The notes: generated by a model not told the origin, from the sequence alone. A stretch of 64,000 bases of DNA from Nitrospirota bacterium (GCA_963749655.1 CAVVOB010000021.1:32001-96000); one strand, 5' to 3'. Shown: positions 33,813 through 63,299, counted from the first letter of the stretch. Translations and numbers: made by a program.

Positions 33813-33823
33813 ATTGTTTCCTT

Positions 33824-39452: not shown

Positions 39453-39467
39453 CTGGTTCTCCTTACA

Positions 39468-41006: not shown

Positions 41007-41092
41007 GAATGACTCCTCTGTTTTTTCAGTTCTAGGTTCAGGATATCGAGTTCACCGCTGGGGGCGTGAACGATGAGCCGGGAGCCGGGAAC

Positions 41093-43033: not shown

Positions 43034-43074
43034 CCCTTAAATGTATCGGCATGGTAATGCTTGAACCCGGAATT

Positions 43075-43377
43075 TCAGCCCTTCAGAATATTGAACTCAT
43101 CCACATAAACGGTCCCGCGATTCCGCGCGATCAGAATGATTATCGCAAGCGCCACCGCCGCCTCGGCCGCGGCCACCGTGATGACGAAAATAGCGAAAAT
43201 CTGGCCCGTCAAGGTTTGAAGGTAATGCGAGAAGGCCACGAGGTTGATGTTGGCTGCGTTCAGCATGAGCTCCATCGACATCAGAATGATGAATATATTG
43301 CGGCGGCTCAGCACACCCACAACTCCGATGGTGAACAGCGCCGCGCTCAGCATGACGTACCAGGACAGGGGAATCAT
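43075..43377 (-). CDS. nuoK: NADH-quinone oxidoreductase subunit K
   Basis: RRN...ELMLNAAN...[11 protein letters not shown]. Confidence 0.95.
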
Positions 43378-43473
43378 TAAAACCTCCAGTTCCCATTGCG
43401 GATTGTCAATTGCGGATTGAGGAATGAACCACAAAGATTCTCATTCGAAATCCGAAATCCGCAATAGCTTTCT

Positions 43474-43977
43474 TTACTCTTTTGCGTTCTTCTTCGCCAG
43501 CATGACCGCGCCCACCAGCCCGACCAGCAGAATGATCGACGCAACCTCAAAGGGGACCAGGTACTTCTGATACAGCAGTTCGCCGAGCTCTCTGACGCCG
43601 ACCGCCTCGACCATGGGCTTGCCGGTGTCGGCGGGAAAGGACCCGCGGGAAACCAGTATCAATATTTCTACGGCGATCAGGATGCCGAAGGCGACCAGCC
43701 AGCCCCAGAAGCGGTTCGCCCGGGGAGAAGTGCTTTCCCGATCGACATTCAGAAGCATGACGACGAACAGGTAGAGGATCATGATGGCGCCGGCATAGAC
43801 GATGAGCTGCACCGCTGCGAGGAACTCCGCATTCAGAAGCACGAAGACGCCGGCGATGTGAAAGAAGAGAAGCAGCATGAACATCACGCTGTGCACGGGA
43901 TTCCGCCTGCTTATGGTGAGCACGGCCGTAACGAGAATGACCGCGGCAAAGTAGAGGAAAATGAGCTTGTTCATCAT
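43474..43977 (-). CDS. nuoJ: NADH-quinone oxidoreductase subunit J
   Basis: NPVHS, QLIVYAGAIMIL, PFEVASI. Confidence 0.95.
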   Translation of the reverse strand: MMNKLIFLYFAAVILVTAVLTISRRNPVHSVMFMLLLFFHIAGVFVLLNAEFLAAVQLIVYAGAIMILYLFVVMLLNVDRESTSPRANRFWGWLVAFGILIAVEILILVSRGSFPADTGKPMVEAVGVRELGELLYQKYLVPFEVASIILLVGLVGAVMLAKKNAKE

Positions 43978-43978
43978 T

Positions 43979-44446
43979 TTACTTTTTTCCCGCCTTCCTG
44001 CCCATGTAGTTGTCTCCCACGGCGACGAGACGATCCCTGGTGTAGAATGCGTCCTTTCGCGAATAACAGGCCAGCTCGAACTCGGGCGTCATGAGGATGG
44101 CCGACACAGGACATGCGTCGATGCAGAAGCCGCAGAACACGCACCGGAGCAGGTCGAGTTCATAGGAGTTCACGACTTTCTGGTGCTCCGGTCCCTCGGA
44201 GGTTACGACGGTGATCGCCTTCGAGGGACAGACGGCTTCGCAGAGACCGCAGCCGATGCACGCGGCCTTCCCCTCTTCATCGCGTCGCATGGCGTGGAGC
44301 CCGCGCGATCCGGCGATCGGTTTCCGCTTGAACGTCGGGTACTGGCGGGTGACCGCCGGGGTCAGCATGGTCTTGAGCGTCAGCCACATGCCCTGGGCGA
44401 TTTCTATCAGAAAGATCGTTTTAAACAGCTTTATCACTTTGTTCAT
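43979..44446 (-). CDS. nuoI: NADH-quinone oxidoreductase subunit I
   Basis: CIGCGLCEAVCP and CVFCGFCIDACP. Confidence 0.95.
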   Translation of the reverse strand: MNKVIKLFKTIFLIEIAQGMWLTLKTMLTPAVTRQYPTFKRKPIAGSRGLHAMRRDEEGKAACIGCGLCEAVCPSKAITVVTSEGPEHQKVVNSYELDLLRCVFCGFCIDACPVSAILMTPEFELACYSRKDAFYTRDRLVAVGDNYMGRKAGKK

Positions 44447-44491
44447 TCTCGTTAACTCCTTACGCCTTACTTCTCACTCTCTCACGGCTCA

Positions 44492-45571
44492 CTACAGCCA
44501 TCCCATCTGCTTCATGCCTGCTGCGACCAGAAGCGTGCCCAGCGACAGGGGTAAAAATATCTTCCAGGATATGTTCATCAACTGGTCGTACCGGTACCGG
44601 GGCAGGGTGGCCCGCAGCCACATATAGAAGAAGATAAAGAAGTACAGCTTTCCAAAGAGCCAGAGCGTCGGGGGAATCGCTGCAAGGAGCCAGTTGATTT
44701 TCCCGATCAGCCAGAGGTGGCCGAGCGTTTTCGGAAGGATCTGCACCGGAAGCCAGCCTCCCAGGAACATGACGCTCACCAGGAGCGACACCACCATCAT
44801 GTTCACATATTCAGCCATGTAGAAAAGGCCGAACCGGATCCCGCTGTATTCCGTGAAGTATCCTGCCACCAGTTCGCTCTCGGCCTCGGGCAGGTCGAAG
44901 GGCACGCGGTTCGTTTCCGCGATGCCCGATATGAGATAGAGGAAGAACGCCACGGGACCGACGGGCAGCGCAACGATGAACCAGCGGTCCTTCTGCGCGT
45001 TGACGATATCGGTGAGGTTCAGCGAACCGGCCATGAGCACCACGGTAATGATGGCGAAGGCCATGGGAATCTCATAGCTGATCATCTGCGCTGCGGAGCG
45101 GAACCCGCCCATAAGGGAGTACTTGTTATTCGACGCCCACCCCCCCATGATCACCCCGTATGTTCCGATGCTTGAAAAGGCCAGGATATACAGGATGCCG
45201 ATGTTCAGGTTCGACACCCAAAGCGGTACATCCCGTCCGAAGATTTTCATCACCGGTCCGAAGGGAACCACGGCAATGGCCCCGAAGGCCATCACAAAAA
45301 GAATCAGCGGCGCGAGGCTGAAAAGATCCACTTGTCCGCTTTCGCGGGGATCACGTCCTCTTTCAGAAGGAATTTGACCGCATCGGCGATCGGCTGCAAG
45401 AATCCCGTGCCAGCCCGCACGCATCGGGCCGAGGCGTGATTGCATGTGCGCGAGGACCTTCCGCTCCATGTACGGCAGGTACATGATGTTGGCGATATTG
45501 AATGCCGCCAGCACGACCGCGGGAATTCCGACGGCAATCACGAATTGCATTATCTGGGTCATATCGGGCAT
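44492..45571 (-). CDS. nuoH: NADH-quinone oxidoreductase subunit H (two compensating indels at about 45320-45400)
   Basis: [33 protein letters not shown]; [15 protein letters not shown] is in an alternate frame. Confidence 0.94.
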
Positions 45572-45580
45572 ATCGTGCTC

Positions 45581-47704
45581 CTATGCTTCTATCTTATAAT
45601 GACGGATCGTCCCTATTTCGTGGGACCGGGTGATGGTCATGCCGGACGAAAACAGGAGGCGTTCGGCAGTGATCACCTCTTTTTTCATGATCGAATCCGA
45701 TGAGAGCGAGAGGTCCTCGGCAAGACCGGCTACCGGTGATTTTTCCCGGGCCCAGCATGCGCCCACTTTGAGATCGCTGTATAAGGGCACGGACGAGCGG
45801 ATCTCTTTCATGATATCGCCGGCAGACCCGAAATTCATGGCTCCGCCCATTTTCGCCGCAATGTCCTGGATGATCTGCCAATCCGGCCGCGACTCGCCCA
45901 CCGGCTCCTCGGCCCTGTTCAGTTGCTGAAGCCTGCGTTCGAGATTCGTAAAGGTTCCCATTTTTTCCGACGAGCTCGCCGCCGGCAGCACGACATTCGC
46001 CAGCTTGGCCGTCTCTGTCATGAAGATATCCTGCACCACGAGGAATTCGAGCCTTGCCAGGTCCTGCTTCAGACTCTGGTCGCTCCCTGCGGGATCGTCT
46101 CCCATGATATAGAGGGCCGCGATCTTGCCGCTCTTGATCGCGCCGAGCATTTCAACGGCGTTCATGCCGGGCTTGTCGGCCTTCCGGTAACCGGGCAGAT
46201 ACGCCGGGTTGATTCCCATGTCAAAGGAACCCTGGAAATTGCTGCGCCGCACCAGGGGATAGAAGGTAACGTTCTGAAGACTACCCGCGAGCGCTCTGAT
46301 CCCTGCAAGCTCCTTGTCCGAGAGCTGTGCGGGGATCACCATGGCAATGCTCTTTGCTTTCTTCAGAAGCTCGACTGCCTGTTTGGCCTCATTGCTTCCC
46401 GCTGAGGTTGACAGTGCCGCAGCCAGATCCTCGATGGCCCGGTCCGTCGTTGTGGGCAGGACCACTTTCGCGACTTTGTTGAACTTGTTGAACTCATCGT
46501 TGACGAGGATCACCTTCCGGTCCTGTTTGTTGACGGCACGGACGATCTCGATGCCGGTGAGCGGATTGATCTCTCCGATGTTCTTATCGAGGATGAGAAT
46601 GACCTCATGCTCGGCCATGCGGGACAGCTCTCCGGAAAAGAAGGTTGTATTAATGCCTTTCGGCACCTTGAGCCGGGCCAGCATGTCCACGTTGTTCGTG
46701 CCGACCACCTCGCGCAGGAACTTCTGGAACACGTAGCTGTCTTCGTTGGTGGTGCGGACCGAGCCGAGGCCGCCGATGCTGTTGGCGCCTGTCCGGCTCT
46801 TGATCACATTGAGGTTGGTCGCAATGACCGAGAGCGCCTCCTCCCAGGTGCAGTCCACCAGCTCGTTGCCCACCCGGACCTTGGGCGTCAATAGCCGCTC
46901 TGCATGATGGACCGCGTCCCAGCCGAACCTGCCCTTGGTGCAGAGATAGTTGTTCTTTGCGGGACCGACGCGCATGATCCTGCCTTCCCGCGTTTCATAG
47001 GAAACATTGCAGCCGCAGCCGCAATAGTTGCATACCGACGATGTCGCTTCGAGGTTCCACGACCGGGCCTTGTATTTGAACTGCCGCGTCGTGAGCGCGC
47101 CGACAGGGCAGATCTCGACGCACTCGCCGCAGAATTCGCAGTCCAGCGGACGGTCGAAATCGGTGCTGATGCGGGCACGCGTTCCGCGCCTTGTGAACGC
47201 CCACTCGCCCACGGCGTTCTGTTCTTCGCAGATCCGGACGCACTTGCCGCAGAGGATGCAGCGGCTGATGTTGCGCTCGATGATCGAGCTCTCGTAATCC
47301 GGCGGGAGATAGCCCTTCTCGGCGTCGAACCTGCTCGGTCCGAGTCCGTATTCGTGCACTAGGTCCTGCAGGGAGCACTCACCCGCCTTGTCGCAGACCG
47401 GACAATCGAGGGGATGCTTGATCAACAGGAGTTCCAGCACCATCTTCCTTGCTTCAATGAGCGCCGGGGAGGTGGTTTTTACGACCATATTGTCCGTGGC
47501 CGGCGTGGTGCAGGAAGGCGTGAACTTGCGCGGTGTGCCTTCAACCTCGACGAGGCATATCCTGCACGCGCCGAAGGGATGAAGCTTATTGTCGTGGCAG
47601 AGTGTCGGGACCCGCGCCCCTGCCGCGCTGCAGGCCTCAAGAATCGTCGCTCCCATCGGTACTTCAACTTTTTTTCCGTCAACCGTTACTGTCATATTTG
47701 GCAT
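45581..47704 (-). CDS. nuoG: NuoG / BfuA-like Fe-S subunit with degenerate molybdopterin-oxidoreductase domain, no H-cluster
   Basis: CRICLVE, HPLDCPVCDKAGEC, CILCGKC, CEFCGEC, CNYCGCGC. Confidence 0.88.
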   Translation of the reverse strand: MPNMTVTVDGKKVEVPMGATILEACSAAGARVPTLCHDNKLHPFGACRICLVEVEGTPRKFTPSCTTPATDNMVVKTTSPALIEARKMVLELLLIKHPLDCPVCDKAGECSLQDLVHEYGLGPSRFDAEKGYLPPDYESSIIERNISRCILCGKCVRICEEQNAVGEWAFTRRGTRARISTDFDRPLDCEFCGECVEICPVGALTTRQFKYKARSWNLEATSSVCNYCGCGCNVSYETREGRIMRVGPAKNNYLCTKGRFGWDAVHHAERLLTPKVRVGNELVDCTWEEALSVIATNLNVIKSRTGANSIGGLGSVRTTNEDSYVFQKFLREVVGTNNVDMLARLKVPKGINTTFFSGELSRMAEHEVILILDKNIGEINPLTGIEIVRAVNKQDRKVILVNDEFNKFNKVAKVVLPTTTDRAIEDLAAALSTSAGSNEAKQAVELLKKAKSIAMVIPAQLSDKELAGIRALAGSLQNVTFYPLVRRSNFQGSFDMGINPAYLPGYRKADKPGMNAVEMLGAIKSGKIAALYIMGDDPAGSDQSLKQDLARLEFLVVQDIFMTETAKLANVVLPAASSSEKMGTFTNLERRLQQLNRAEEPVGESRPDWQIIQDIAAKMGGAMNFGSAGDIMKEIRSSVPLYSDLKVGACWAREKSPVAGLAEDLSLSSDSIMKKEVITAERLLFSSGMTITRSHEIGTIRHYKIEA

Positions 47705-47755
47705 TGGTTTACCCTTTAAAGGCTGATAGCTATCGGCTGTCAGCCGTGAGCTGGT

Positions 47756-49546
47756 TTAGTCTATCGACCAGAACCGGCACGCCTTGATGCAGGACTTGCA
47801 TTTCGTGCACTTCTCCGGATCGATGTAGGCGACCTGGCCTTTTTCCCACTTGAGAGCGCCTGTCGGGCAGGCCTTGAAGCACTGGCCGCACTTCTTGCAC
47901 TTCGACTGGTCTACTACGAACTTGACGAGCGGCGTACAGACCCGGGCAGGACATTTATGGTCCTTGATATGCGCCTCGTATTCGTCGCGGAAATACCTGA
48001 TCGTAGTAAGCACCGGGTTCGGCGAGGTCTGGCCCAAACCGCAGAGCGAGGTGTCCTTGATCTGCTGGGAAAGCTGGAGCAAAAGCTCGATGTCGCCTTC
48101 GCGGCCCTCCCCGCTGGTGATGCGCTGCAGTATTGAGAGAAGGGTCTTGTTCCCTATCCTGCAGGGAACGCACTTGCCGCAGGACTCATCCTCGGTGAAT
48201 TCGAGAAAGAACTTGGCCATGGCCGGCATGCAGGTGGTTTCGTCCATCACCACCATACCGCCGGAACCCATGATCGCGCCGGTTTTGTTGATATTCTCGA
48301 AGTCCACGGGCGTGTCGATCAGGGTATGAGGGATGCAGCCGCCCGACGGTCCGCCCATCTGCACGGCCTTGAACTTTCGGTTGTTTTTGATGCCGCCGCC
48401 GATCTCGAAAATGATGGTCTTGAGCGGAGTGCCCATCGGCACTTCTACCAGGCCGATGTTGTTTAACGCGCCGGAGAGGGCGAACACCTTGGTGCCTTTG
48501 CTTTTCTCGGTCCCGAGGCTCGCGAACCAGTCCGCGCCGTGCAGGATGATCGGCGGAATGTTCGCGAAGGTTTCGACATTGTTCAGCACCGACGGCCGCT
48601 GCCACAGTCCCTTGACCGCCGGGAACGGCGGCTTGGCGCGGGGCATGCCCCGTTTGCCTTCGATGGAAGCCATGAGGGCTGTTTCCTCGCCGCACACGAA
48701 TGCGCCGGCGCCCTGGTAGATCTCGATATCGAGGTCAAAACCGGTGCCGAGGATGTCCTTGCCCAGGAGCCCATGTTCTTTTGCTGAATCGATGGCGATC
48801 TGGAGACGATGGACCGCAAGAGGATATTCGGCCCGGACATAGATATATCCGTAATGAGCGCTGATGGCCTTTGCCGCGATGATCATGCCTTCGAGGACGG
48901 AATGGGGGTCGGCTTCCATGACGCTCCGGTCCATGAATGCACCCGGGTCGCCTTCGTCGCCGTTGCACAATATATATTTGATCTCGCCGGGAACACGGGC
49001 GCAGAGCTCCCATTTGAGGCCGGTAAGGAATCCGGCGCCGCCCCTGCCGCGAAGCCCCGACTTCTTCATTTCGGTCACGATCTGCTCGGGGGTCATCTCG
49101 GTGAGCGCTTTAGCCGCAGCCATGTACCCGTCGCGGGCGATATACTCCTCGATCTTTTCGGCGTCGATGAGACTTCTGTTCCGGAGGGCGCGGAGCACCT
49201 GGTGCTTGAAGAACGGGATCTCGTTCATCACCGGGATCGTTTTCTTTTCCGCCGGCGGCGTGTACAGGAATTTCTGAACCGGCCGTCCCTTGATGAAGTG
49301 CTCTTCCACCAGATGCGGAACATCTTCGGGCTTTACGAGCTGATAGAAAATGTCCTCGGGATAGACCACCATGACCGGGCCTTTGGCGCAGAAGCCGTTG
49401 CACCCCGTCAGGACTATCTTGACCTCGTTCTGCAGGTTTCGCTTGATGAGTTCGGTCTCAAGCGCGTCCTTCACCTTGAGCGAGCCGTTTGCAACGCAAC
49501 CCGTTCCGGCGCAGATCATTATGTTTGAGCGGTATGTCGTCTCCAC
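47756..49546 (-). CDS. nuoF: NuoF of the HydB/BfuB type (N-terminal 2Fe-2S, FMN/NAD domain, C-terminal 2[4Fe-4S])
   Basis: CAGTGC...GCNGFC, GRGGAGF, DEGDPGAFMDR, GAFVCGEE, GGPSG, ESCGKCVPC, two C-terminal CxxCxxCxxxC. Confidence 0.92.
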   Translation of the reverse strand: METTYRSNIMICAGTGCVANGSLKVKDALETELIKRNLQNEVKIVLTGCNGFCAKGPVMVVYPEDIFYQLVKPEDVPHLVEEHFIKGRPVQKFLYTPPAEKKTIPVMNEIPFFKHQVLRALRNRSLIDAEKIEEYIARDGYMAAAKALTEMTPEQIVTEMKKSGLRGRGGAGFLTGLKWELCARVPGEIKYILCNGDEGDPGAFMDRSVMEADPHSVLEGMIIAAKAISAHYGYIYVRAEYPLAVHRLQIAIDSAKEHGLLGKDILGTGFDLDIEIYQGAGAFVCGEETALMASIEGKRGMPRAKPPFPAVKGLWQRPSVLNNVETFANIPPIILHGADWFASLGTEKSKGTKVFALSGALNNIGLVEVPMGTPLKTIIFEIGGGIKNNRKFKAVQMGGPSGGCIPHTLIDTPVDFENINKTGAIMGSGGMVVMDETTCMPAMAKFFLEFTEDESCGKCVPCRIGNKTLLSILQRITSGEGREGDIELLLQLSQQIKDTSLCGLGQTSPNPVLTTIRYFRDEYEAHIKDHKCPARVCTPLVKFVVDQSKCKKCGQCFKACPTGALKWEKGQVAYIDPEKCTKCKSCIKACRFWSID

Positions 49547-49611
49547 GTTACCTTACCCCGTTTTACCGTTTAAACTGTTTGATCGGATCAAACGGCTTAA
49601 ACCGAATTTAC

Positions 49612-49989
49612 TCAGTACGTCGTTTCATGCCCAACGACCAGAGCGTACTCCTTGACCGGCTTTCCGCCTACCACATGTTCGGCAAATATCTTGCGCGTTT
49701 TTTCTTCGGTCAGTGCAATGTACTTCACCGGGGGCTCGCCGACCAGCTCGATGGTCGCCATCGGCTCCTGGCTGCAGAGGCCGGCGCAGCCCGACGTCGT
49801 TATCGCAACGTCTTTGAGGCCGGCCTTGCCGAGCTCTTCCATGACGGTGTTCATGATGGCACGGGCGCCTGCCGCGATTCCGCAGGTCCCCATGTGCACC
49901 GTTATCTTGACCCTGAACCCGCCTTCACGCAGTCCCTGGTGGTATTCTTCCTTGATCCGCTTCAAATCAGCAATCGTCAGTTTAGCCAT
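49612..49989 (-). CDS. HndB/HydD-like thioredoxin-fold 2Fe-2S protein
   Basis: VHMGTCGIAAGAR, SGCAGLCSQEPM. Confidence 0.88.
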   Translation of the reverse strand: MAKLTIADLKRIKEEYHQGLREGGFRVKITVHMGTCGIAAGARAIMNTVMEELGKAGLKDVAITTSGCAGLCSQEPMATIELVGEPPVKYIALTEEKTRKIFAEHVVGGKPVKEYALVVGHETTY

Positions 49990-50043
49990 GTTTGTCCATC
50001 CTTATTAATCCGCATTCCGAATTCAGCATTCCGAATTCAGAAA

Positions 50044-50553
50044 CTACTCGTACTTCTTGACGATGTCCATCACCTTCGTCGCGGCTACGTCGCCGTACGT
50101 ATCCTGACCGATCACCACGACGGGAGCGAGTCCGCAGGCACCGAGACACCGCACGGCCTCGAGCGAATATTTCTTGTCCCGGGTGATCTCGCCGACCTCG
50201 ATGTCCAGCTCATCTTTCAGCTTGTCGAGGATCTCCTCGCTTCGTTTCACGTAGCATGCCGTTCCCAGGCATACCCGGATGACGTGTTTGCCACGCGGAA
50301 CGAGGGTGAAAAATGAATAGAACGTTGCCACGCCGAAGACCACGCTGGGAGACATCTTCATCCCCTTGGCGATGTAGCGCTGCACGGCGTGCGGAAGATA
50401 ACCGCATACATCCTGTGCCTGTTGAAGCACGGGGATGAGCGAACCGGGCTTGTCCTTGTAGCGCTCGACGATTGCGTCGATCTTCCGGTACTGCTCGGGC
50501 GAGAAGCTGTCTGGAGGAGCTATGGGTTGTGCAACGGTATCGTTACTCATCAT
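50044..50553 (-). CDS. nuoE: NuoE / HydC-like 2Fe-2S subunit
   Basis: GVATFYSFF, VCLGTACYVK, CLGACGLAP. Confidence 0.92.
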   Translation of the reverse strand: MMSNDTVAQPIAPPDSFSPEQYRKIDAIVERYKDKPGSLIPVLQQAQDVCGYLPHAVQRYIAKGMKMSPSVVFGVATFYSFFTLVPRGKHVIRVCLGTACYVKRSEEILDKLKDELDIEVGEITRDKKYSLEAVRCLGACGLAPVVVIGQDTYGDVAATKVMDIVKKYE

Positions 50554-50582
50554 CTACCTCTTTTTTACCGTGGTAAACGGGG

Positions 50583-51116
50583 CTATTTGATTTTTATCTC
50601 TTCCCGCAGCAGCCCCCGAATGGCATTGAGCGCTTCTGCGGCATTGATCGGCACATCATCCAGTTCCGCCTTGATGTCACGGGTGTCGAACCGGAAGGTG
50701 CAGTCATGATCCTGTTCGACATAGAGGACATCGATTCCCGGATGCCCCGCAATCAAGGCGATCAATGTATCGGCAATATTCCCGATTGCCGGGCGGTCGA
50801 CATTGCTCCAGCCGAAGGTAACCGCCACCTGCGTCCCTGCGCCCGGCTGAGAATCTATGGCCAAGGTACCGCCGGCCATTTCTGCTGCCTGGGCCAGGAA
50901 CGGGATGCCGAGGCCCGTCTTCTTGCCCTTGGTGGTGAAGAAAGGATCCCGGACCCGGGCAAGCGTCCCCGCATCCATCCCTCTTCCATTGTCCACCACC
51001 TCGATGCGGAGCAGGTCCTTTCCGATGTCCCTGCTGACATTGATCGTTATCAGCGTTGCATCGGCCCGGATCGAATTTTCGGCGATATCCAGGATGTGCA
51101 AAGAGAGGTCCTGCAC
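50583..51116 (-). CDS. Stand-alone HATPase_c protein of the type found in [FeFe]-hydrogenase operons
   Basis: DLSLHILDIAENSI, DNGRGM, DPFFTTK, GLGIPFL. Confidence 0.88.
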   Translation of the reverse strand: MQDLSLHILDIAENSIRADATLITINVSRDIGKDLLRIEVVDNGRGMDAGTLARVRDPFFTTKGKKTGLGIPFLAQAAEMAGGTLAIDSQPGAGTQVAVTFGWSNVDRPAIGNIADTLIALIAGHPGIDVLYVEQDHDCTFRFDTRDIKAELDDVPINAAEALNAIRGLLREEIKIK

Positions 51117-51120
51117 CGCT

Positions 51121-51867
51121 TCAGCACTCGAACTTTCTGCCGTCCCTGCCCGTTAATGCCTTCTTGATTTCGTCTACCGTACCGTCTGCAACCGTGAACC
51201 ACGTAAAACGTTTGCCCACATCGTCGGGGCTGTGAGCATCGGAAGAGGTAATGATCGGGTACTTCCCGCAATCCGGGAACCGCTCCACGAGCTTGTCCGG
51301 GACGGATTGAGCCGAAACCTCGACAGCATCCAGTCCCAGAGAAGGAGGTATGAACCCGAGCTGCCCGATCAAGCTGAAGGACTCCCGGTCCACATGAGCT
51401 GCAATCACGAGGCTTCCGCCCCTCGCCGCCCTCGCTGCCGCTACGATTTTCTCTGCCGGCAGCGCCGTGGCCGCGATCAGCAGCCGGTCACAAAACCCGC
51501 TTACTCCATCCTCATCGTCCGCGATCACCTGCAAGCCGAAACTGTGTTCGTCATTGGACCCGCTCAGATTTCCATAAATAAGCTTCTGAAAGTCCAGCAG
51601 ATCCTCGTCATCTTCAAAGAACGTCAGGATGTGAGCCTCTTCCGAGGAGGTGACCTCCATCCCGCCCAGCACCATCAGTCCGTTCCGTTTGCCGGCCTTT
51701 TTCACGGCCAGGACGTTTTCCGCCGAGTTGTGGTCGCAGACGCCGATGAGGTCGATGCCCTTCTGGAGGGCTGCATTCACTACTTCACGCGGCGACATAT
51801 CCAGATCAGAGCAGGGAGACAGACACGTATGGACGTGCAGATCGGCCTTAATGCGCCTAAGCGCCAC
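51121..51867 (-). CDS. PHP-domain phosphoesterase
   Basis: ADLHVHTCLSPC, CDHNS, AAHVDR, SSDAH; GTG start overlaps the upstream gene. Confidence 0.88.
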   Translation of the reverse strand: MALRRIKADLHVHTCLSPCSDLDMSPREVVNAALQKGIDLIGVCDHNSAENVLAVKKAGKRNGLMVLGGMEVTSSEEAHILTFFEDDEDLLDFQKLIYGNLSGSNDEHSFGLQVIADDEDGVSGFCDRLLIAATALPAEKIVAAARAARGGSLVIAAHVDRESFSLIGQLGFIPPSLGLDAVEVSAQSVPDKLVERFPDCGKYPIITSSDAHSPDDVGKRFTWFTVADGTVDEIKKALTGRDGRKFEC

Positions 51868-52198
51868 GGATTCCCGCCTTGTACAGTCTGCCCACAAGCT
51901 CGAACGCCGACAGGTCGGTGACCATGATGGGAATCTGCTCTGCCTCGGCTTTTGCCACTGTGTCCTGTTCCGGAGACCTGCCCTGAACCAGCACGATTCC
52001 CGCCAGACCTTTGTGCGACGCCACTGCAACGATATTCTGATGGATGTGAAGAGTGACCCACAAGACGCCGTCATCGGCATGAGCCAGAACGTCCGAGAGA
52101 AGGTCGCTCACATACCCCCCGGATACTTCGGTATCGAGGTTTCCGGCACCTGCCTTCACGTCCAGACCGAACTCTTTTACGAGATCACTCAGCTTCAT
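51857..52198 (-). CDS. DRTGG domain protein
   Basis: GGYVSDLLSDVL, LWVT...HQNIVAVA. Confidence 0.85.
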   Translation of the reverse strand: MKLSDLVKEFGLDVKAGAGNLDTEVSGGYVSDLLSDVLAHADDGVLWVTLHIHQNIVAVASHKGLAGIVLVQGRSPEQDTVAKAEAEQIPIMVTDLSAFELVGRLYKAGIRGA

Positions 52199-52287
52199 GG
52201 ATGGTGGCGCCCTTCTTGCGGAGACCGACGGTTCTCTGGCTGACCGGTCGTCCCGCTGTCCCGCCGGCATCGTGCCGTATCAGGGAA

Positions 52288-53241
52288 TCAGCTCGTATAG
52301 TAAAATTGCATGGTCAAATGCGTTCCGTCCGGGACCGAGGATTTCAGCTCCATTTCATCGGCGCATTTTTTCATGTTCACCAGCCCCATGCCCGCGCCGA
52401 ATCCCAGTTCCCTGACCCACTCCGGTGCCGTCGAGTAGCCCGGTTGCATCGCTTTTTCAACATCCGGGATCCCGGGTCCGCTGTCCACGGCCTCTACGAT
52501 GATCCCCCACTTCTCTACCTGCGCCCTGATCTGGCCGCCCTTGGTGTATGAGGCAAGATTGATCTCGGCTTCATACGTTGCAACGCCGATCCGGCGGAGG
52601 AGCGGCGGACAGACACCCAGCTTCTTGAGCGCGTTCTTCAGTTCACTCGCCGCCTTTCCCGCCTCTTTCAAGGTCTGGCCGGCGACGTTGTATCTGAACG
52701 CAAAACTTATTTCATCGGCGGAGACGTCCTCGAAAAACTTCCTCATCGTCGGACGGTGACGGGTCAACGCCGCCTTTGTTTCAGACTGTTCGTACTCTAC
52801 TTCAAGCTTTCGCAGCAGGCCTTCGACAATGCTTCCCTTGGTAATGATCCCTACCAGCCGATCCTGCCGGTCCAGAACCGGGTATCGCCGGTACCCCAGC
52901 TTGGAAAACTTGGCAATGCAGTGAACAAGCAGCTCATCGGTATACAGACATTCGACCTTGGGCTTCATCCGCTCCCGCACGGGAGTATTGATAGCATTAT
53001 CATACAGGGCATTGATCAGGTCTTCGATGCTGACCATGCCTACCAGTTTGCCGTTCTCGACAACCGGCGTTCCGGAAATCCGATTGTCCCGCAGGAGGAT
53101 CCGGAACTCCGCCATGGTCTGCTCAGGCCCGACGGTGACCATCTTGGGGGCCATGACTTCGCCGACGGTGATCTCATAGACCATCTCCTGCGTCTTGGTC
53201 ACCCGGTCGAGTGTTCCTTGATCTTTGCCCTGCTGTTCCAT
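52288..53241 (-). CDS. CBS-pair plus RsbT-like anti-sigma/Ser-Thr kinase fusion
   Basis: ISGTPVV and YPVLD CBS repeats; YEAEIN, DSGPGIPDV, GFGAGMGL. Confidence 0.85.
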   Translation of the reverse strand: MEQQGKDQGTLDRVTKTQEMVYEITVGEVMAPKMVTVGPEQTMAEFRILLRDNRISGTPVVENGKLVGMVSIEDLINALYDNAINTPVRERMKPKVECLYTDELLVHCIAKFSKLGYRRYPVLDRQDRLVGIITKGSIVEGLLRKLEVEYEQSETKAALTRHRPTMRKFFEDVSADEISFAFRYNVAGQTLKEAGKAASELKNALKKLGVCPPLLRRIGVATYEAEINLASYTKGGQIRAQVEKWGIIVEAVDSGPGIPDVEKAMQPGYSTAPEWVRELGFGAGMGLVNMKKCADEMELKSSVPDGTHLTMQFYYTS

Positions 53242-53245
53242 CAGA

Positions 53246-53602
53246 CTATTGCCGCTCTTCCACTCCCCGCAGGCCGCTCATATACAGGATGCCGCATGCT
53301 TCGAACATGGTCAGCTTGGTAATGAAAAGCGGGATATCTTTCTGTTTTGCGAGGGCCACGGTTTCAGATTCCGGCAGCTTCCCCCGCACGACGCAGACCG
53401 CTTTGATATCTGCGATATCAGCAGTCCGTACCGCCTGGGGATTGGTGATCCCCGTAATCAGGATGCCGTTCGCATGGTTCCTGCCGAGCACGTCGCTCAT
53501 AAGGTCGGCACTGAAGCACCGGTCCACCTCAATCTCGTCCAGGAGACCCTCGCCGACGAGAACCTGCGCCTGAAGAAGGTTGATGATTTCTCTCAATATC
53601 AT
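53246..53602 (-). CDS. DRTGG domain protein
   Basis: SADLMSDVL, ITGITNPQAVRTA, MFEACGILY. Confidence 0.85.
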   Translation of the reverse strand: MILREIINLLQAQVLVGEGLLDEIEVDRCFSADLMSDVLGRNHANGILITGITNPQAVRTADIADIKAVCVVRGKLPESETVALAKQKDIPLFITKLTMFEACGILYMSGLRGVEERQ

Positions 53603-53617
53603 CCACGTCCCTCTCCG

Positions 53618-54814
53618 TTAGCGGTCGCACTCGCCAAGCACGATGTCGATGGTACCGATGCACGCAATGACGTCGGCAACCATATGGCCGGTCACCATCT
53701 TCGGAAGCGCGCTGACATGCACATACGAGGGTGCGCGAATCTTGATGCGGTAAGGTCTTCCACTCCCGTCGCTGACGATATAGAAGCCAAGCTCGCCCTT
53801 CGGCGCTTCCGTAGCCACATACACCTCGCCCTTGGGCATGGGAACCCACTTGCTCATGAGCACGAACTGGTGTGCAAGCGACTGCATGCTCTGCATGACC
53901 TGCGTTTTCTCGGGTATGGCGTAACGCGGATCGCTGGTCGTGACGGGACCGGGCTGAATCATGTCGAGACACTGCCGGATTATCCGGTTGCTCTGGCGCA
54001 TCTCATTGATGCGCACGATGTACCGGTCGTACACGTCGCCGTTCTTGCCGAGCGGCACCTCGAAATCCATCTTGTCGTAGGCGGCGTAGGGCTCGACCTT
54101 GCGAAGGTCGTAGTTAACGCCCGAACCGCGCAGCGTACCGCCGGTCAGGCCGTAATTGACTGCATCCTCGGCCGTCATCACGCCGATCCCCACGGTCCGC
54201 TTAAGCCAGATGCGGTTCTGGCGAATGAGGGTATCGTAGTCTTCGAGGCGCTTGGGGAACAATTCGGTGAACTCACGGCACTTGTCGATGAAGTCCCGGG
54301 GGATATCGTTTCTTACGCCGCCGATCCGGACGTAGCTCACTGTCTGCCGCGCGCCGGTCACCATCTCCGTGAGATCGAGTATGAGCTCCCGCTCCCGCAA
54401 GGTATACATGCAGACCGTCATGGCGCCGATATCGAGGGCATGGGTGCCGAGCCACACGAGATGCCCGGAAAGCCGCGTCAGTTCCGCCATCAGCGTCCTG
54501 ATGAATTGAGCCCGCTCAGGAACCTCGATGGCGGCGAGTTTTTCGACCGCCACAACGTAGCCGAGGTTGTTGTTCATGCAGGTAATGTATTCCAGGCGGT
54601 CGGTCATGGGGATGATCTGGTGGTAGGTCCTGCTCTCCATCCATTTCTCGATGCCGCGATGGAGGTATCCCGGACGCGGATCGCAGCCGACCACGGTCTC
54701 GCCCTGCAGATCAACCACCAGGCGCAGCACGCCGTGCGTGGCCGGATGCTGAGGCCCCATGTTCAGGGTTATTTCTTTTTGCACGATCTCTTTTTGCGTA
54801 TCGGTAGGAGACAT
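53618..54814 (-). CDS. nuoD: NADH-quinone oxidoreductase subunit D
   Basis: NMGPQHPATHGVLR, GYLHRGIEK, GTIDIVLGECDR; no NiFe CxxC pairs. Confidence 0.96.
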   Translation of the reverse strand: MSPTDTQKEIVQKEITLNMGPQHPATHGVLRLVVDLQGETVVGCDPRPGYLHRGIEKWMESRTYHQIIPMTDRLEYITCMNNNLGYVVAVEKLAAIEVPERAQFIRTLMAELTRLSGHLVWLGTHALDIGAMTVCMYTLRERELILDLTEMVTGARQTVSYVRIGGVRNDIPRDFIDKCREFTELFPKRLEDYDTLIRQNRIWLKRTVGIGVMTAEDAVNYGLTGGTLRGSGVNYDLRKVEPYAAYDKMDFEVPLGKNGDVYDRYIVRINEMRQSNRIIRQCLDMIQPGPVTTSDPRYAIPEKTQVMQSMQSLAHQFVLMSKWVPMPKGEVYVATEAPKGELGFYIVSDGSGRPYRIKIRAPSYVHVSALPKMVTGHMVADVIACIGTIDIVLGECDR

Positions 54815-54868
54815 AGATTCACCATTGGGTCAGGGTCCGGGTCCAGCGTCCGGGCCTCAAGTTATTTA

Positions 54869-55339
54869 TCAATAGCCTTTCAGCGGATATTCCTTCCTGA
54901 GCGGGTGTCCTTCCCAATCCTCGGGCAGCAGGATCCTGCGGAGGTCCGGATGGCCGTCGAACAGGACCCCCATGAGATCATAGGTCTCCCGCTCATGCCA
55001 GTCGGCCGTGTGCCATACCGAAGAGACCGTTGCGATCCGCGGATCATCTTCCGGCACCCGTACCTTCAGCCGGATCCGGTGATGATGAACCGTTGATATC
55101 ATATTGTACACGACCTCGAAGCGGGGACCCGAGTCTCCGGGGTACTTCGAATAGTCAACAGCCGTAAGATCGGCCAGATGGTCCATCTTCAGGGAAGGTT
55201 CGTCTCTCAGGAACAGGCATATCTCCCTGATCATGTCCCTTTTGACCGACACGGCGACCTGCCCCGCGTAGTTCGCCGTACCCAGCACGTGGCCGGCAAA
55301 TTTTTCTTCTATAATTTTTGCGATTTGTAGGGGGTCCAT
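54869..55339 (-). CDS. nuoC: NADH-quinone oxidoreductase subunit C
   Basis: ERETYDLMG, HPDLRRILLP, GHPLRKEYP. Confidence 0.95.
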   Translation of the reverse strand: MDPLQIAKIIEEKFAGHVLGTANYAGQVAVSVKRDMIREICLFLRDEPSLKMDHLADLTAVDYSKYPGDSGPRFEVVYNMISTVHHHRIRLKVRVPEDDPRIATVSSVWHTADWHERETYDLMGVLFDGHPDLRRILLPEDWEGHPLRKEYPLKGY

Positions 55340-55428
55340 GCTACCTCGTCCTTGCCCGCGCAGCCTGAACACTCTGAGTGCGCGATTCTCGCTTCGAACA
55401 TCGGTACATTAATGTTTGAGGTGGTTTG

Positions 55429-55908
55429 CTACTTCCGGATGTAGTGCTCTTTCTTGATCTTTTCCTGAAGCTGCATGATGCCGTTCATCAGGGCCTCGGG
55501 CCGCGGCGGACAGCCCGGGATGTAGACGTCAACGGGAACGATATTGTCCACACCCTGCACTACGCTGTAAGTGTTGAAGATCCCGCCGGATCCGGCGCAG
55601 CTGCCCATGGCGATAACGTACCGCGGCTCGGGCATCTGGTCATACACGCGCCTTACGATAGGCGCCATCTTTTTCGTCAGCGTGCCAGCGACGAGCAATA
55701 GGTCGGATTGTCTGGGCGAGGGACGCGGCACGGTGCCGAAACGGTCAAAGTCATGTTGCGGAGCGGAATAATACTGGATCATCTCGATAGCGCAGCAGGC
55801 GAGCCCGAACGTCATGGGCCAGATGGAATAGGACCGCGCGAGGTTCAAGAGTTCGTCGAGTTTCGTGGTGACGTATCCTTCCTCGAATACGTTCTGAATT
55901 ACTCCCAT
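55429..55908 (-). CDS. nuoB: NADH-quinone oxidoreductase subunit B
   Basis: [23 protein letters not shown]. Confidence 0.96.
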
Positions 55909-56273
55909 TCAAGTGCCCCTTTCTTCCATGCGTAGACATACCCCACAACCAGAATGGCGATGAAGACGACCATCTCTACGAAGCCATAGAGGCCGATATG
56001 GTTGTACGCAACAGCCCAGGGGTAGAGAAACACGGCTTCAATATCGAAGATGAGGAACAGCATTGCGATGATGTAATAGCGGATGGAAAACTTCTGATGG
56101 GCGTCCGTGAAGGGGGTTATGCCGGACTCGTAGGTGATAAGCTTTTCGGGATAGGGGTTCCGCGGCCGGAGAATCCGGCTGGCAACCAGCATCCCAACGC
56201 CTACCGCGATGCCTACCAGGAGAAATACCACAACTGGCAGGAAGTGTTCCGGAAGATAGGTACTTGGTGTCAT
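55899..56273 (-). CDS. nuoA: NADH-quinone oxidoreductase subunit A
   Basis: [22 protein letters not shown]. Confidence 0.95.
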
Positions 56274-56329: not shown

Positions 56330-56358
56330 ATAATAAGACAACTCAAAACGTTTGTCAA
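56330..56358 (-). promoter_or_regulatory. nuo operon sigma70 promoter
   Basis: TTGACA-17 nt-TATTAT. Confidence 0.65.
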
Positions 56359-60208: not shown

Positions 60209-63200
60209 ATGCATTTCACCGATCTCTTCATAAAACGACCCGTGCTCGCCACGGTGGTGAGCCTGTTGATCCTGGTCCTGGGACTCCGCTCGATCGGGCT
60301 CCTGCCGGTCCGCCAGTATCCGCTGACCCAGAATGCGGTGGTGACGGTCCAGACCGTTTACTACGGCGCCGATCCCGGCCTGGTGGCGGGATTCATCACG
60401 ACGCCGCTCGAAAACTCCATTGCCCAGGCAAACGGCATCGATTATCTCACCTCATCGAGCAGGCAGAGCGTCAGCACCATCCAGGCGACCCTGCGCCTGA
60501 ACTATGATTCGAACAAGGCCCTGACCGAGATCAACACCCGGGTCAATGCCGTGCTGAACCAGCTGCCGCGGGACACGCAGCAGCCGGTCATCACCGTGGC
60601 CATCGGCGAGACCATCGATTCCATGTACATCGGGTTTTCGAGCAAGGTCCTGCCCACGAACAAGATCACCGACTATCTGATCCGGGTCGTGCAGCCGAAG
60701 CTGCAGGCCGTGGACGGCGTGCAGACGGCCGAGATCCTCGGCAAGCGCCAGTTCGCGCTTCGGGCCTGGCTCGACCCGGTGAAGATGGCGGCCTTCGGCG
60801 TGACCGCCACGGACGTGAGCAACGCCCTGGCCTCGAATGACTTCATCTCGGCGCTCGGCCGCACCCAGGGACAGATGGTGACCGTCGACCTGATCGCGGA
60901 CACCAGCCTGCATTCGGTCGAGGAGTTCCGGAACCTCGTGATCAAGTCGAAGAACGGCGCCCTCGTCCGCCTGGGCGATGTGGCCAAGGTGACGCTCGGC
61001 GCGGAGGACTACGACACGGCGGTCACCTTCGACGGCCAGAGCGCGGTCTACATCGGCATCAAGGTCGCGCCCACGGCCAACCTCCTGACGGTGATCGACG
61101 GCGTGCGCAAGGTCTTTCCCGTCGATCGCGGAGCAGCTGCCCGAAGGCCTGGACGGCCGCATCGTCTACGACGCCACGAAGTACGTGAACAGTTCGATCC
61201 GCGAGGTGGTCAGGACGCTGGTCGAGGCGCTCCTGATCGTGACCGTCGTGATCTTCCTGTTCCTCGGCACGGTGCGTTCGGTGATCATCCCGACGATCGC
61301 CATGCCGCTGTCGCTGATCGGCGCCTTCTTCATCATGCTGGTGCTCGGCTACACGATCAACCTGCTGACCCTGCTCGCGCTGGTGCTGGCCATCGGGCTC
61401 GTGGTCGACGACGCGATCATCGTGGTGGAGAACGTCCACCGCCACATTGAAGACGGCATGAAGCCCCTGCCGGCGGCGCTCCAGGGGGCGCGCGAGCTTG
61501 CCGGTCCGATCATCGCCATCTCGGTGGTCCTCATTGCGGTCTATATCCCCATCGGATTCATGGGCGGGCTGACCGGCGCCCTGTTTACGGAGTTCGCCTA
61601 CACGCTGGCCGGCGCCGTTGCCGTGTCGGCTGTCATCGCGCTCACGCTGTCGCCCATGATGGCCTCGCGCTTTCTGAAGCCCTACAACCATGACGGACAG
61701 GGTCGTTTCGCCGCCTTCATCGACCGCCAGTTCGCCGGTCTGCGCCGCGGCTACGAGCGGCTGCTGCACGGCTCGCTCAACACGCTGGCGGTGACGGGCG
61801 TGTTCGCCGCGCTCATTTTCGCGAGCATCTATTTCCTCTACGCGACCTCGAAGAGCGAACTTGCGCCGCAGGAGGACCAGGGCATCATCATCGCCCTGAC
61901 CACGGCCGCTCCCGACGCCACGCTGGAGCAGACGCAGCTCTCGACCCGGCAGGTGTTCGATGTCTTCACCTCGTTTCCGGAGACGGACCATGTGTTCCAG
62001 TTCGCCGGCGCGAGCGCGCTGAACATCGCCTTCGGCGGCATGGTGTTCAAACCCTGGGACGAACGGAAGCGCACGTCGATGGAGCTGCAGCCCCAGGTGC
62101 AGATGAAGCTGGGCCAGATCGCCGGTTCACGGTCGGCCGCGTTCCTGCCGTCGCCGCTGCCGGGCAGCAGCGGACTGCCGGTGCAGTTCGTGATCGGCAC
62201 GACGGAATCCTTCGAGCGCCTGAACGAGGTGTCCCAGGCGCTCCTGGCAAAGGCCTACGCCAGCGGCGTCTTCGCGTTCCTCGATACGGACCTCAAGATC
62301 GACAAGCCGCAGGTCACCGTGGATATCGACCGTGACAAGACGGCCCAGCTCGGCCTCACCATGCGCGACGTGGGCGGCGCGCTGGGGTCCATGCTGGGCG
62401 GCGGCTATGTCAACTACTTCAGCCTCGCCGGCCGCTCCTACAAGGTCATCCCGCAGGTGATGCAGCGCGACCGCCTGAACGCGGAGCAGCTCGGTAACTA
62501 TTACATCACCACGCCGAACGGCTCGTCGGTCCCGCTCTCGACGATCATCCGCCTTAAGACGGACGTCGTGCCTGAATCGCTGAACCATTTCCAGCAGCTC
62601 AATTCGGCGACGATCTCGGGCGTGTTGATGCCGGGGGTCACCCTGGGCCAGGCACTGGAGACACTCAAGGGTCTTGCTCGGGAAATCCTGCCCCAAGGCT
62701 ACAGCGTCGATTATGCGGGCCAGTCGCGGCAGTACGTGCAGGAGTCGAGCGCTTTGTTGATCACGTTCGTCTTCTCACTGATCATCATCTTCCTGGCGCT
62801 TGCCGCCCTGTTCGAAAGCTTCCGCGATCCTTTCATTGTGCTCGTCAGCGTGCCCATGTCGATCTGCGGGGCCATGATCTTCATCAGCCTGGGCGTGGGC
62901 GGGGCGAGCCTCAACATCTATACGGAGGTGGGCCTCGTGACTCTGATCGGCCTGATCAGCAAGCACGGCATCCTGATCGTGCAGTTCGCCAATGACCTGC
63001 AGCGCGAGGGCAAGGGCAAGCGCGAGGCAGTGGAAACGGCCGCCGCGATCCGGCTCCGGCCCATCCTGATGACGACTGCGGCCATGGTCCTGGGAGTGCT
63101 TCCGCTCGTGACTGCGTCGGGTGCGGGCGCCGCGGGCAGGTTCAACATGGGCCTGGTGATCATGACCGGCATCGCTATCGGCACGCTGTTCACCCTCTTC

Positions 63201-63299
63201 GTGGTCCCGGCAATGTATCTGTTCCTCGCCGCGGAGCACCGGCAGGAGGGCCAAGCCCGTGAAACAGCTGGGGGAATGCCGCAGGCCGCTCATTCGTAA
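60209..63299 (+). CDS. RND permease (MexI/MexW-like), frameshift near 61120
   Basis: FIKRPVLA, GLVVDDAIIVVEN, GLISKHGILIV, RLRPILMTT. Confidence 0.93.

Follow-up and report, generated by a model that had tools for sequence, protein, structure and literature searches.

Partner-switching modules consist of a SpoIIAB/RsbW kinase, a STAS antagonist (SpoIIAA/RsbV), and a PP2C phosphatase. To our knowledge, post-translational control of electron-bifurcating (Bfu/HydABC-type) enzymes and of bacterial complex I is essentially unknown. Schut et al. 2022 (PMC9304861) define Nuo-Bfu as a predicted complex I of 14 subunits whose input module is BfuABC (HydABC-type), a type known from 51 sequences, with BfuB clade 39 occurring in Planctomycetes and Nitrospirae. 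According to the main text of that paper, Nuo-Bfu is predicted to oxidize NADH and reduced ferredoxin jointly and to reduce menaquinone, and no such enzyme has been purified so far. The hisK/hydE gene has been noted, in the descriptions available, as encoding a non-subunit and set aside as "maturation and/or regulation." The regulatory insert of CBS-pyrophosphatases is described as a sensor of adenine nucleotides, and the published neighborhoods of HydS, a putative sensory [FeFe]-hydrogenase, name PAS, Ser/Thr kinase, or PP2C, and not DRTGG, PHP, or HATPase, in the texts available (PMC5707799; a 2026 preprint on PP2C-linked hydS). Here, we describe a five-gene cassette of DRTGG, kinase, PHP, and HATPase_c genes embedded in a complex I (nuo) operon on a 64,000-nucleotide stretch of DNA from a Nitrospirota bacterium (GCA_963749655.1 CAVVOB010000021.1:32001-96000), referred to below as the window. 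The cassette is a general companion of Bfu modules, whichever partner enzyme they serve, and its five genes probably form a nucleotide-sensing phosphorylation switch.

As an earlier note on this DNA had claimed, five co-oriented and tightly spaced genes lie between nuoD and nuoE, within 50583-53602. They are on the minus strand, each at the coordinates listed here.

53246..53602, minus strand: DRTGG-1, 118 amino acids (aa); Pfam DRTGG 22.5 bits (below the cut-off), with a fold match
52288..53241, minus strand: CBS pair plus kinase domain, 317 aa; CBS E 1.8e-24, HATPase_c_2 E 5.3e-9
51857..52198, minus strand: DRTGG-2, 113 aa; Pfam DRTGG 22.9 bits (below the cut-off)
51121..51867, minus strand: PHP-family metal phosphoesterase, 248 aa; PHP E 1.3e-8, PHP_C E 7.1e-6
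50583..51116, minus strand: stand-alone HATPase_c protein, 177 aa; HATPase_c E 5.8e-16, HATPase_c_3 E 2e-6

Only 15 nucleotides (nt) separate nuoD from DRTGG-1, 4 nt DRTGG-1 from the kinase gene, 4 nt the PHP from the HATPase gene, and 29 nt the latter from nuoE. The PHP gene begins with GTG and overlaps the end of DRTGG-2 by 11 nt, a longer frame being present in the list of open reading frames (ORFs) from 52080. The DRTGG-2 start at 52198 was chosen by comparison with orthologues; a longer ORF, with a 24-codon N-terminal extension, begins at 52270. The chosen start leaves an 89-nt spacer (52199-52287) after the kinase stop, compared with about 10 nt in L003 and other related loci (loci are designated by L numbers). 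The whole nuo region spans 37998-56273 on the minus strand as a single tightly packed gene string in the order nuoABCD-cassette-nuoE-hydD-like-nuoF-nuoG-nuoHIJKLMN, and the full set of 14 Nuo subunits flanking the cassette was recognized by Pfam and NCBIfam. The earlier note's statement that the window lacks a hydrogenase catalytic subunit also holds, as no such domain was found in 44 further window ORFs and NuoD alone is weakly NiFeSe_Hases-like, as expected.

Related loci come from a scan of the GTDB set, with each species represented by one genome, in which an alignment of the HATPase_c protein (177 aa) returned 586 relatives. The best 80 loci were kept; as these are the closest of the 586 relatives, the counts and proportions given throughout are not a census. 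The alignment used in the scan had 25 rows, a 112-row alignment being too diverse, and all trees are quick searches with support from the Shimodaira-Hasegawa-like approximate likelihood ratio test (SH-aLRT) only. The nuoD-cassette-nuoE order, for which the earlier note had proposed a search, recurs in 10 of the 80 loci (L001-L010), all from Nitrospirota species known as metagenome-assembled genomes (MAGs), with an identical nuoA-nuoN order around the five genes. These are ten different MAG records, and several of the contigs exceed 1 Mb (range, 1-2.4 Mb). In these nuo-embedded loci, the ATPase is 59-68% and the other proteins are 73-96% identical to those of the window. Metagenome protein sets contain over 100 close relatives of the CBS-kinase (83-90% identity); those with an organism name are labeled Nitrospirota, bar one labeled Betaproteobacteria. 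The ratio of nonsynonymous to synonymous substitution rates (dN/dS), computed against six orthologous loci, is 0.036-0.199 for the five cassette genes, the same range as for nuoE and nuoG, with dS saturated at about 1-3. It is hardly credible that assembly error produced the arrangement, or that it is an insertion in decay and without function. The window does carry signs of small indel errors, in split AcrB-like genes and a frame-shifted nuoH stretch, but the recurrence of the same order in ten other MAG records, the five intact frames with their catalytic motifs kept, and the dN/dS of 0.04-0.20 all speak against such an origin. Because the same order is found in ten Nitrospirota MAG records, the arrangement is not a misassembly, and that objection, which the earlier note had raised against itself, is contradicted by the dN/dS values as well.

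The genes that follow the cassette encode the input module of the complex.

50044..50553, minus strand: nuoE (BfuC/HydC type); 2Fe-2S_thioredx E 8.9e-51
49612..49989, minus strand: HydD/HndB-like thioredoxin-fold protein, 125 aa; 2Fe-2S_thioredx 22.7 bits, below the cut-off
47756..49546, minus strand: nuoF (HydB/BfuB type); Complex1_51K E 3.4e-47, NADH_4Fe-4S E 4e-34, two Fer4
45581..47704, minus strand: nuoG (BfuA type); Fer2_4, NADH-G_4Fe-4S_3, Fer4_Nqo3, Molybdopterin

In the main text of PMC9304861, BfuB is defined by four InterPro domains, namely the NuoF flavin mononucleotide (FMN) domain, SLBB, the NuoF 4Fe-4S region, and a 4Fe-4S ferredoxin-type domain, and the BfuB of Nuo-Bfu falls in clade 38 or 39 of the authors' tree. 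The window NuoF has all four (Complex1_51K, a weak SLBB at E 1.2e-3, NADH_4Fe-4S, and two Fer4), and BfuC (nuoE) and BfuA (nuoG) are encoded together with it in the middle of the nuoA-N cluster, as in the published description of Nuo-Bfu. The 596-aa NuoF has an N-terminal 2Fe-2S_thioredx domain (residues 6-82), the FMN and 4Fe-4S core, and two C-terminal [4Fe-4S] sites, whereas the 445-aa NuoF of Escherichia coli lacks both the N-terminal 2Fe-2S and the C-terminal 4Fe-4S additions. The best NCBIfam match of NuoE is HoxE (170 bits, below the cut-off), and NuoG shares 40% identity with its L022 counterpart and 27% with that of E. coli. In the HydD/HndB-like protein, C36, C68, and C72 are conserved in 63-64 of 65 sequences; since a fourth Cys is not conserved, it is doubtful that the protein has a normal four-Cys 2Fe-2S site.

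Among 64 NuoF cores placed in a tree, those of the window clade (SH-aLRT 100) are nested in an 18-row Nitrospirota clade (99), in which the other NuoFs go with a NuoG-like protein of 820 aa. Around it is a 30-row clade (98) that takes in Syntrophales-type enzymes; hydrogenase/Fdh-linked NuoFs also belong to the larger clade. E. coli NuoF stands on a branch of 2.7. There is good support that the window operon, from an uncultured Nitrospirota lineage, encodes a complete complex I of the Nuo-Bfu type. That an NADH-input module of the hydrogenase kind (HydC/HydD/HydB, "Bfu") brought its usual accessory cassette along is likewise well supported and agrees with the earlier note, which had derived the block from a bifurcating-type module; both the HydB/BfuB architecture of NuoF and its place in the tree among hydrogenase/Fdh-linked NuoFs, far from E. 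coli, bear this out.

Across the 80 loci, a BfuB-like NuoF is encoded in the flank of 65, and DRTGG, kinase, and PHP genes are present in 56. The partner enzyme is an [FeFe] HydA in 18 loci, as judged by BLAST to a Pfam-verified example; the other partners are a Hox-like [NiFe] enzyme, an Fdh-like enzyme with a NuoF-GltD fusion (Syntrophales), HdrA/MvhD-like proteins, the 820-aa NuoG-like protein of Nitrospirota, and complex I. The earlier note was therefore right that a similar gene set accompanies hydC/D/B/A-type genes, often with a HydS-like Fe-S protein between the kinase and the second DRTGG gene. The hisK/hydE genes thus belong to a conserved, modular five-gene cassette that follows NuoE/HydD/NuoF through at least five partner-enzyme classes and many phyla. 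Two loci of other Nitrospirota look like intermediate arrangements: in L017 (L017:663-13078) the cassette lies directly upstream of an 11-subunit nuoABCDHIJKLMN operon, and in L053 (L053:642-15596) an 11-subunit nuo operon is divergent from a string of histidine kinase, cassette, regulator, nuoE, hydD-like gene, nuoF, and NuoG-like gene (844 aa). In addition, three Thermodesulfobacteriota loci carry a reduced form at the nuoD/nuoE junction, consisting only of DRTGG-2 and the ATPase without kinase or PHP (L020:2898-9070, L022:6434-19784, and L032:760-6347). Their separate NuoF clade suggests a second embedding event, a quick tree being no proof.

Two side observations concern these relatives. 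In L014:11490-14555, L041:2216-5368, and L075:2350-5493, a NuoF of about 1020-1050 aa is fused to a GltD-like module (Fer4_20 plus Pyr_redox_2), and in L014 and similar loci the Fdh-like gene after NuoF is split into two frames, which a selenocysteine codon could explain. In L019, which is among the closest non-embedded relatives in both the NuoF and the kinase trees, the cassette is separated from nuoE by an inserted HEPN-domain gene and further small ORFs (L019:3314-4059).

The kinase protein of the window combines a CBS pair (about residues 26-145) with a kinase domain (about residues 176-317). The tandem CBS domains are recognized by Pfam in two stretches and match many CBS proteins in the PDB. 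The first of them keeps a G-x-x-S-x-x-D stretch, which we take to be the ribose contact. The kinase domain scores 36.6 bits against HATPase_c_2, above the cut-off of 27.4, and its N-box (E, E, N), DxGxG, and GxGxGMG motifs are invariant across 63 sequences. SpoIIAB chains are its closest relatives among solved sequences in the PDB (E about 4e-5). A kinase domain of this family is thus present as the earlier note had it, while the label "RsbT-like" is loose, since the best named NCBIfam match is SpoIIAB, at 49 bits against a cut-off of 135.

DRTGG-1 and DRTGG-2 stay just short of the Pfam cut-off of 25.2 bits, while homologues exceed it (L042, 39.6; L061, 30.1; L022, 28.1; and L020, 26.9 bits), the DRTGG-2 orthologues of L020 and L022 among them. 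A single-sequence search of DRTGG-1 against PDB sequences gave nothing significant (best E 0.37), and a profile and a fold search were needed; the profile finds the CBS-pyrophosphatase chains 3l2b and 3l31 at E 1.2e-3. The AlphaFold2 (AF2) model of DRTGG-1 (mean predicted local distance difference test, pLDDT, 94.2) has AF1212 (2ioj, Pfam DRTGG) as its top Foldseek match with a template modeling (TM) score of 0.76, matches the DRTGG domain of CBS-pyrophosphatase (3l31/3l2b) at TM 0.65-0.70, and also matches the N-terminal domain of HPr kinase/phosphorylase. Because homologues pass the Pfam cut-off and the fold matches, the DRTGG assignment is confirmed. A STAS-like fold was considered and rejected, as no STAS chain appeared among the 35 Foldseek matches listed (ranks 1-48 of at least 500).

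Both DRTGG proteins share the motif D-L-(M/L)-S-D-V, which reads DLMSDVL in DRTGG-1 and SDLLSDV in DRTGG-2. The serine of this motif is invariant in 56 of 56 DRTGG-1 sequences (Ser36) and in 70 of 70 DRTGG-2 sequences. When the kinase domain and DRTGG-1 were folded together, the interface score ipSAE was 0.62 (runs 0.61, 0.64, and 0.62), with 0.00 for the best of three controls. Among reference pairs, 116 of 157 solved complexes and 2 of 215 mismatched ones reach this value, figures that are only approximate here because the co-fold was run on alignments of our own. At least 98% of contacts are shared between the runs, and the partner pLDDT is 88 or higher. The predicted interface involves residues 33-37, 54-56, and 59-60 of DRTGG-1, including the invariant D33, S36, N54, Q56, R59, and T60, and the N-box helix and G2 lid of the kinase, with Glu49 of the kinase domain paired with S36. 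The model supports, short of demonstrating, binding of the kinase to DRTGG-1 with the invariant Ser at the ATP site. Fusion proteins of DRTGG and HATPase_c_2 occur in L029, L042, and L061. An apparent further fusion, a "kinase of 360 aa" in L048, was discarded, as the ORF call had run the kinase together with RecR domains.

In the PHP protein, the motifs HxH, DH, E, H, H-x-D, and SDAH, presumably the metal ligands, are at least 95% conserved in 65 sequences. PHP-type protein phosphatases of the CpsB/YwqE kind act on a phosphoprotein. The NCBIfam matches of the window protein are to nucleoside bisphosphate phosphatase, RNase RNM, and cyclic phosphate dihydrolase models, and its PDB sequence matches are 3e0f and 2yb1, with Endonuclease Q aligned over the last 50 residues only. 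These matches lend themselves to another reading, in which a small nucleotide is the signal: the PHP enzyme would hydrolyze it (pAp, a cyclic nucleotide, or a dinucleoside polyphosphate) and the CBS and DRTGG proteins would bind it, much as the CBS-DRTGG insert of CBS-pyrophosphatases is described to bind AMP, ADP, ATP, and diadenosine polyphosphates. We consider this very unlikely, as the PHP matches are all weak and far below the family cut-offs, and the kinase-DRTGG co-fold sets the invariant Ser at the ATP site.

The 177-aa ATPase has homologues in 132 clusters at 50% identity (E<=1e-30), with D10, N14, D42, G44, G68, G70, and G83 as invariant residues. Its AF2 model (pLDDT 94.5) consists of one Bergerat ATP-binding domain and a small alpha/beta domain. 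Foldseek matches it over its full length to the N-terminal regions of MutL, PMS2, and TopoVI-B (about 180-209 columns), with moderate scores against MutL-type proteins (TM score normalized to the query, TMq, 0.55-0.60; rmsd 5-8 A) that stand beside the HATPase_c_3 match. Histidine-kinase CA domains match over only about 100 columns. The name "HisK," understood as a two-component histidine kinase, does not suit it, since the 177 aa contain only HATPase_c and no DHp/HisKA domain. It is a lead from this model that the "HisK/HydE" protein may be a miniature GHL/MutL-type ATPase rather than a histidine kinase. Fusions of PHP with HATPase_c are also found (P0140, 433 aa; P0153, 431 aa).

A GHL-type fold would also suit a maturation or assembly aid, in which above all the MutL-like ATPase, PHP, and DRTGG-2 serve the flavin/Fe-S input module while it is built and docked to the membrane arm. 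The authors of the Acetobacterium woodii and Acetomicrobium mobile studies propose "assembly" or "maturation" for HydE/HisK in the parts of those papers available, and no other member is as closely linked to nuoE and the HydD-like gene as the HATPase, which stands alone between them in L013, L015, L040, L054, and L066. However, a sensor input (CBS or HydS) together with a partner of the Ser-kinase type fits signaling better, and many Bfu enzymes lack the full cassette, with DRTGG, kinase, and PHP missing from the flank in 8 of the 80 loci. We judge the assembly role to be unlikely.

The sensor input comes in three forms. A CBS pair is fused to the kinase in 16 loci, where the next gene is at most 191 nt away. 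The HydS-type form is found in 21 loci, in which the kinase is about 140-170 aa long (about 275 aa at most where fused to DRTGG-1) and is followed by a gap of at least 1.2 kb. In all ten cases tested, this gap between kinase and DRTGG-2 holds a HydS-like gene, with a weak Fe_hyd_lg_C match in each and PF04060 in six. Neither input is present in 26 loci. CBS and HydS are mutually exclusive, the 16 CBS loci leaving no room for HydS and the 21 gap loci lacking CBS. Six CBS-fused kinases lie outside nuo operons, in L019 and L031 (Dehalococcoidia), L056 and L063 (Aerophobetes), L070 (Anaerolineaceae), and L074 (Spirochaetota). In the kinase-domain tree, 17 of 17 CBS-fused kinases form one clade (96) in which the nuo-embedded ones are nested (100), and the plain kinases of other Nitrospirota form a separate clade (98). 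This topology, with every CBS kinase in a single clade and the nuo-embedded ones within it, means that in this sample the fusion to CBS happened a single time and predates the embedding. The earlier note had tied the gain of the CBS pair to complex I, which the six CBS-fused kinases in non-nuo loci of other phyla contradict; its companion claim, that the block "lost the H2 sensor," cannot be polarized, given 26 loci with neither input. The histories of kinase and NuoF do not agree in full, consistent with a cassette moving from one Bfu operon to another.

Taken together, these parts suggest how the switch may operate. From what is known of the family, the CBS pair on the kinase would bind an adenosine-containing ligand and set kinase activity, taking the place held by the HydS-like sensor gene in the hydrogenase-linked versions. 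The SpoIIAB/RsbW-type kinase would dock on DRTGG-1 and phosphorylate Ser36, as suggested by the co-fold, the gene fusions, and the invariant residues. The PHP enzyme may strip the phosphate, working with the putative GHL-type ATP switch ("HisK/HydE") and with DRTGG-2, the likely partner of this ATPase. The phosphorylation state might then be relayed to the NuoE/HydD/NuoF module, through its activity or its assembly, and tune electron entry into complex I, as synteny would suggest. As a whole, a Bfu-module cassette that sits in a Nuo-Bfu operon and serves as a phosphorylation switch tuning electron entry is the best explanation we can offer, and we hold it with moderate confidence.

Several observations weigh against it. 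Position is the only link between the cassette and the complex I module, so that co-location is the sole evidence for the "phosphorylation switch on complex I" of the earlier note; its "energy-charge-responsive" draws only on the behavior of CBS pairs elsewhere. HisK/HydE and HydD were not co-purified with the A. woodii and A. mobile enzymes, implying that any contact is not stable. The DRTGG fold is not STAS, which makes the analogy with partner switching a functional one only. The second CBS domain has Ser/Asn in the nuo clade where other CBS kinases have Asp, and in L020, L022, and L032, where the nuo-embedded form is reduced, the invariant Ser is retained in a locus with no kinase gene. 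The nearest solved PHP sequences are Endonuclease Q and nucleotide phosphoesterase-like entries, not protein phosphatases. Furthermore, a BfuB-like NuoF is missing from the flank in 15 of the 80 loci, 6 of which break off at a contig end, and the HATPase gene stands alone in 8.

Finally, a HAMP histidine kinase, response regulators, and sigma-54 activators flank the cassette in non-nuo Nitrospirota, which points to a transcriptional output. The main rival explanation builds on this point: a metabolite or redox signal would be passed to regulators elsewhere and set transcription of the nuo (Bfu) genes. A HAMP-HisKA-HATPase kinase lies upstream of the cassette in L053, L046, and L035, single-domain response regulators or sigma-54 activators lie downstream in L046, L035, L037, L053, L065, and L011, and HydS-type sensors are thought to work through kinases on expression, as stated in the text available (PMC5707799, citing Zheng et al.). 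However, the window operon encodes no DNA-binding or receiver protein, the cassette is inside the structural operon and not beside its promoter, and it persists in loci without two-component genes. We regard control of gene expression as possible but somewhat doubtful.

A phosphorylation switch acting on the enzyme would, if true, explain how anaerobes throttle NADH/ferredoxin-driven respiration and hydrogen metabolism. The boldest form of this explanation is a new kind of partner switch, in which DRTGG phospho-acceptors, an RsbW-type kinase with exchangeable input, a PHP phosphatase, and a MutL-like switch gate the Bfu input module post-translationally, with an adenine-nucleotide signal controlling electron entry into complex I here. 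We think it rather unlikely to hold in full; if it is true, phospho-regulation would have been found in a bacterial complex I for the first time. The cassette offers concrete test points in one invariant serine, one predicted kinase-substrate interface, and one CBS ligand.

The remaining features of the operon are as follows.

56330..56358, minus strand: promoter-like match upstream of nuoA, the best sigma-70-like one; TTGACA-17-TATTAT, 11/12
55899..56273, minus strand: nuoA; Oxidored_q4 E 5.7e-41
55429..55908, minus strand: nuoB; Oxidored_q6 E 9.2e-30
54869..55372, minus strand: nuoC; Complex1_30kDa E 6e-49
53618..54814, minus strand: nuoD; Complex1_49kDa E 6.7e-119, TIGR01962 568 bits (cut-off 459)
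44492..45571, minus strand: nuoH; NADHdh E 1.6e-107
43979-44446, minus strand: nuoI; nuoI-N assigned as a set by Fer4, Oxidored_q3, Oxidored_q2, and three Proton_antipo_M proteins
43474-43977, minus strand: nuoJ; Pfam basis shared with the nuoI-N set
43075-43434, minus strand: nuoK; Pfam basis shared with the nuoI-N set
41093-43033, minus strand: nuoL; Pfam basis shared with the nuoI-N set
39468-41006, minus strand: nuoM; Pfam basis shared with the nuoI-N set
37998-39452, minus strand: nuoN; Pfam basis shared with the nuoI-N set

The promoter scan returned 11 sites against 8.5 expected, and the match upstream of nuoA is a consensus match only. It is the sole strong promoter-like site there, with nothing notable at the cassette borders; such scans are weak evidence. 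The cassette is probably co-transcribed with the whole nuo operon.

Elsewhere in the operon, residues 61-85 or so of NuoH (window about 45316-45391) diverge from three orthologues that share a conserved run, and both flanks align well. This stretch looks like a compensated frameshift, whether by sequencing error or by real damage. Two AcrB/RND-type transporter genes of the window are each split into two frames that overlap or adjoin (60209-61450 with 61185-63299 and 16175-18439 with 18508-19536) that match successive parts of the ACR_tran profile; they may be further signs of assembly indels, or pseudogenes. The window also contains two genes resembling the ribonucleotide reductase large subunit, at 4873-7224 (783 aa, with a TSCPD domain) and 34334-36109 (591 aa, without TSCPD). 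The 591-aa gene is located a short way downstream of nuoN and neighbors a set of pentose-phosphate genes (29193-34282).

With respect to earlier work, Nuo-Bfu, the hisK/hydE gene, and HydS sensors beside kinases or phosphatases are already known. Since the enzyme type was defined in PMC9304861, the Nuo-Bfu part of our finding is not new, and the earlier note's remark that it knew of no description of the arrangement fails for a complex I with BfuABC in mid-operon, as the main text of that paper describes; within the reach of our searches, it stands for the five-gene cassette. In the literature searched, which took in few of the subscription journals, we found no description of the cassette as a unit, of its three input forms, or of its presence in complex I operons, nor of the DRTGG serine as a likely phospho-acceptor or the MutL-like nature of the ATPase. 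In the same literature, no publication combined DRTGG with hydrogenase and PHP, or bifurcating hydrogenase with PHP domain and kinase, and those containing "DRTGG" did not concern the cassette, as judged by title and abstract. The term "nuoEFG" was not found in the Nitrospirota literature searched, and "Nuo-Bfu" was found within it in PMC9304861 alone. The text of PMC9304861 does not contain the word "kinase," and its supplement names no kinase, DRTGG, or PHP, its Figure 3, which marks "regulatory" genes, lying outside this check. The hfsABCD operon of Thermoanaerobacterium was considered as the same cassette and rejected, since in the description available it is a PAS-bearing HydS hydrogenase operon with no DRTGG/PHP set named.

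Comparing the window operon with the published Nuo-Bfu operons, the nuoA-N order with mid-operon Bfu genes, the extra domains of NuoF, and the Nitrospirae hosts, as the main text of PMC9304861 gives them, are the same. However, five regulatory genes and a HydD-like gene belong to the operon here. The hydE gene of A. woodii (hydC-hydE-hydD-hydB-hydA) and the hisK gene of A. mobile (NiFe-HydABCSL) take the same gene position as the ATPase gene in L013, L015, L040, and others, their equivalence to the window ATPase resting on description and gene order. In contrast to those operons, the ATPase is accompanied here by four other genes, its link is to complex I, and its model is MutL-like over its full length. 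Compared with the HydS-type putative sensory [FeFe]-hydrogenases, related loci carry a HydS-like gene between the kinase and DRTGG-2, whereas the window has no HydS and a CBS pair is in the input position. The regulatory insert of CBS-pyrophosphatases (CBS-DRTGG-CBS; 3l2b and 3l31) likewise brings both domain types together, whereas here DRTGG is separate and the CBS pair is attached to a kinase instead of a pyrophosphatase. Lastly, the cassette shares with partner-switching modules a small Bergerat-fold domain of the Ser-kinase type, a small alpha/beta partner whose invariant Ser is predicted to lie at the ATP site, and a dedicated phosphoesterase gene. It differs from them in that the partner has the DRTGG fold and the operon contains neither a STAS gene nor a sigma factor, the phosphoesterase is PHP and not PP2C, and a second ATPase and a second DRTGG protein are present.

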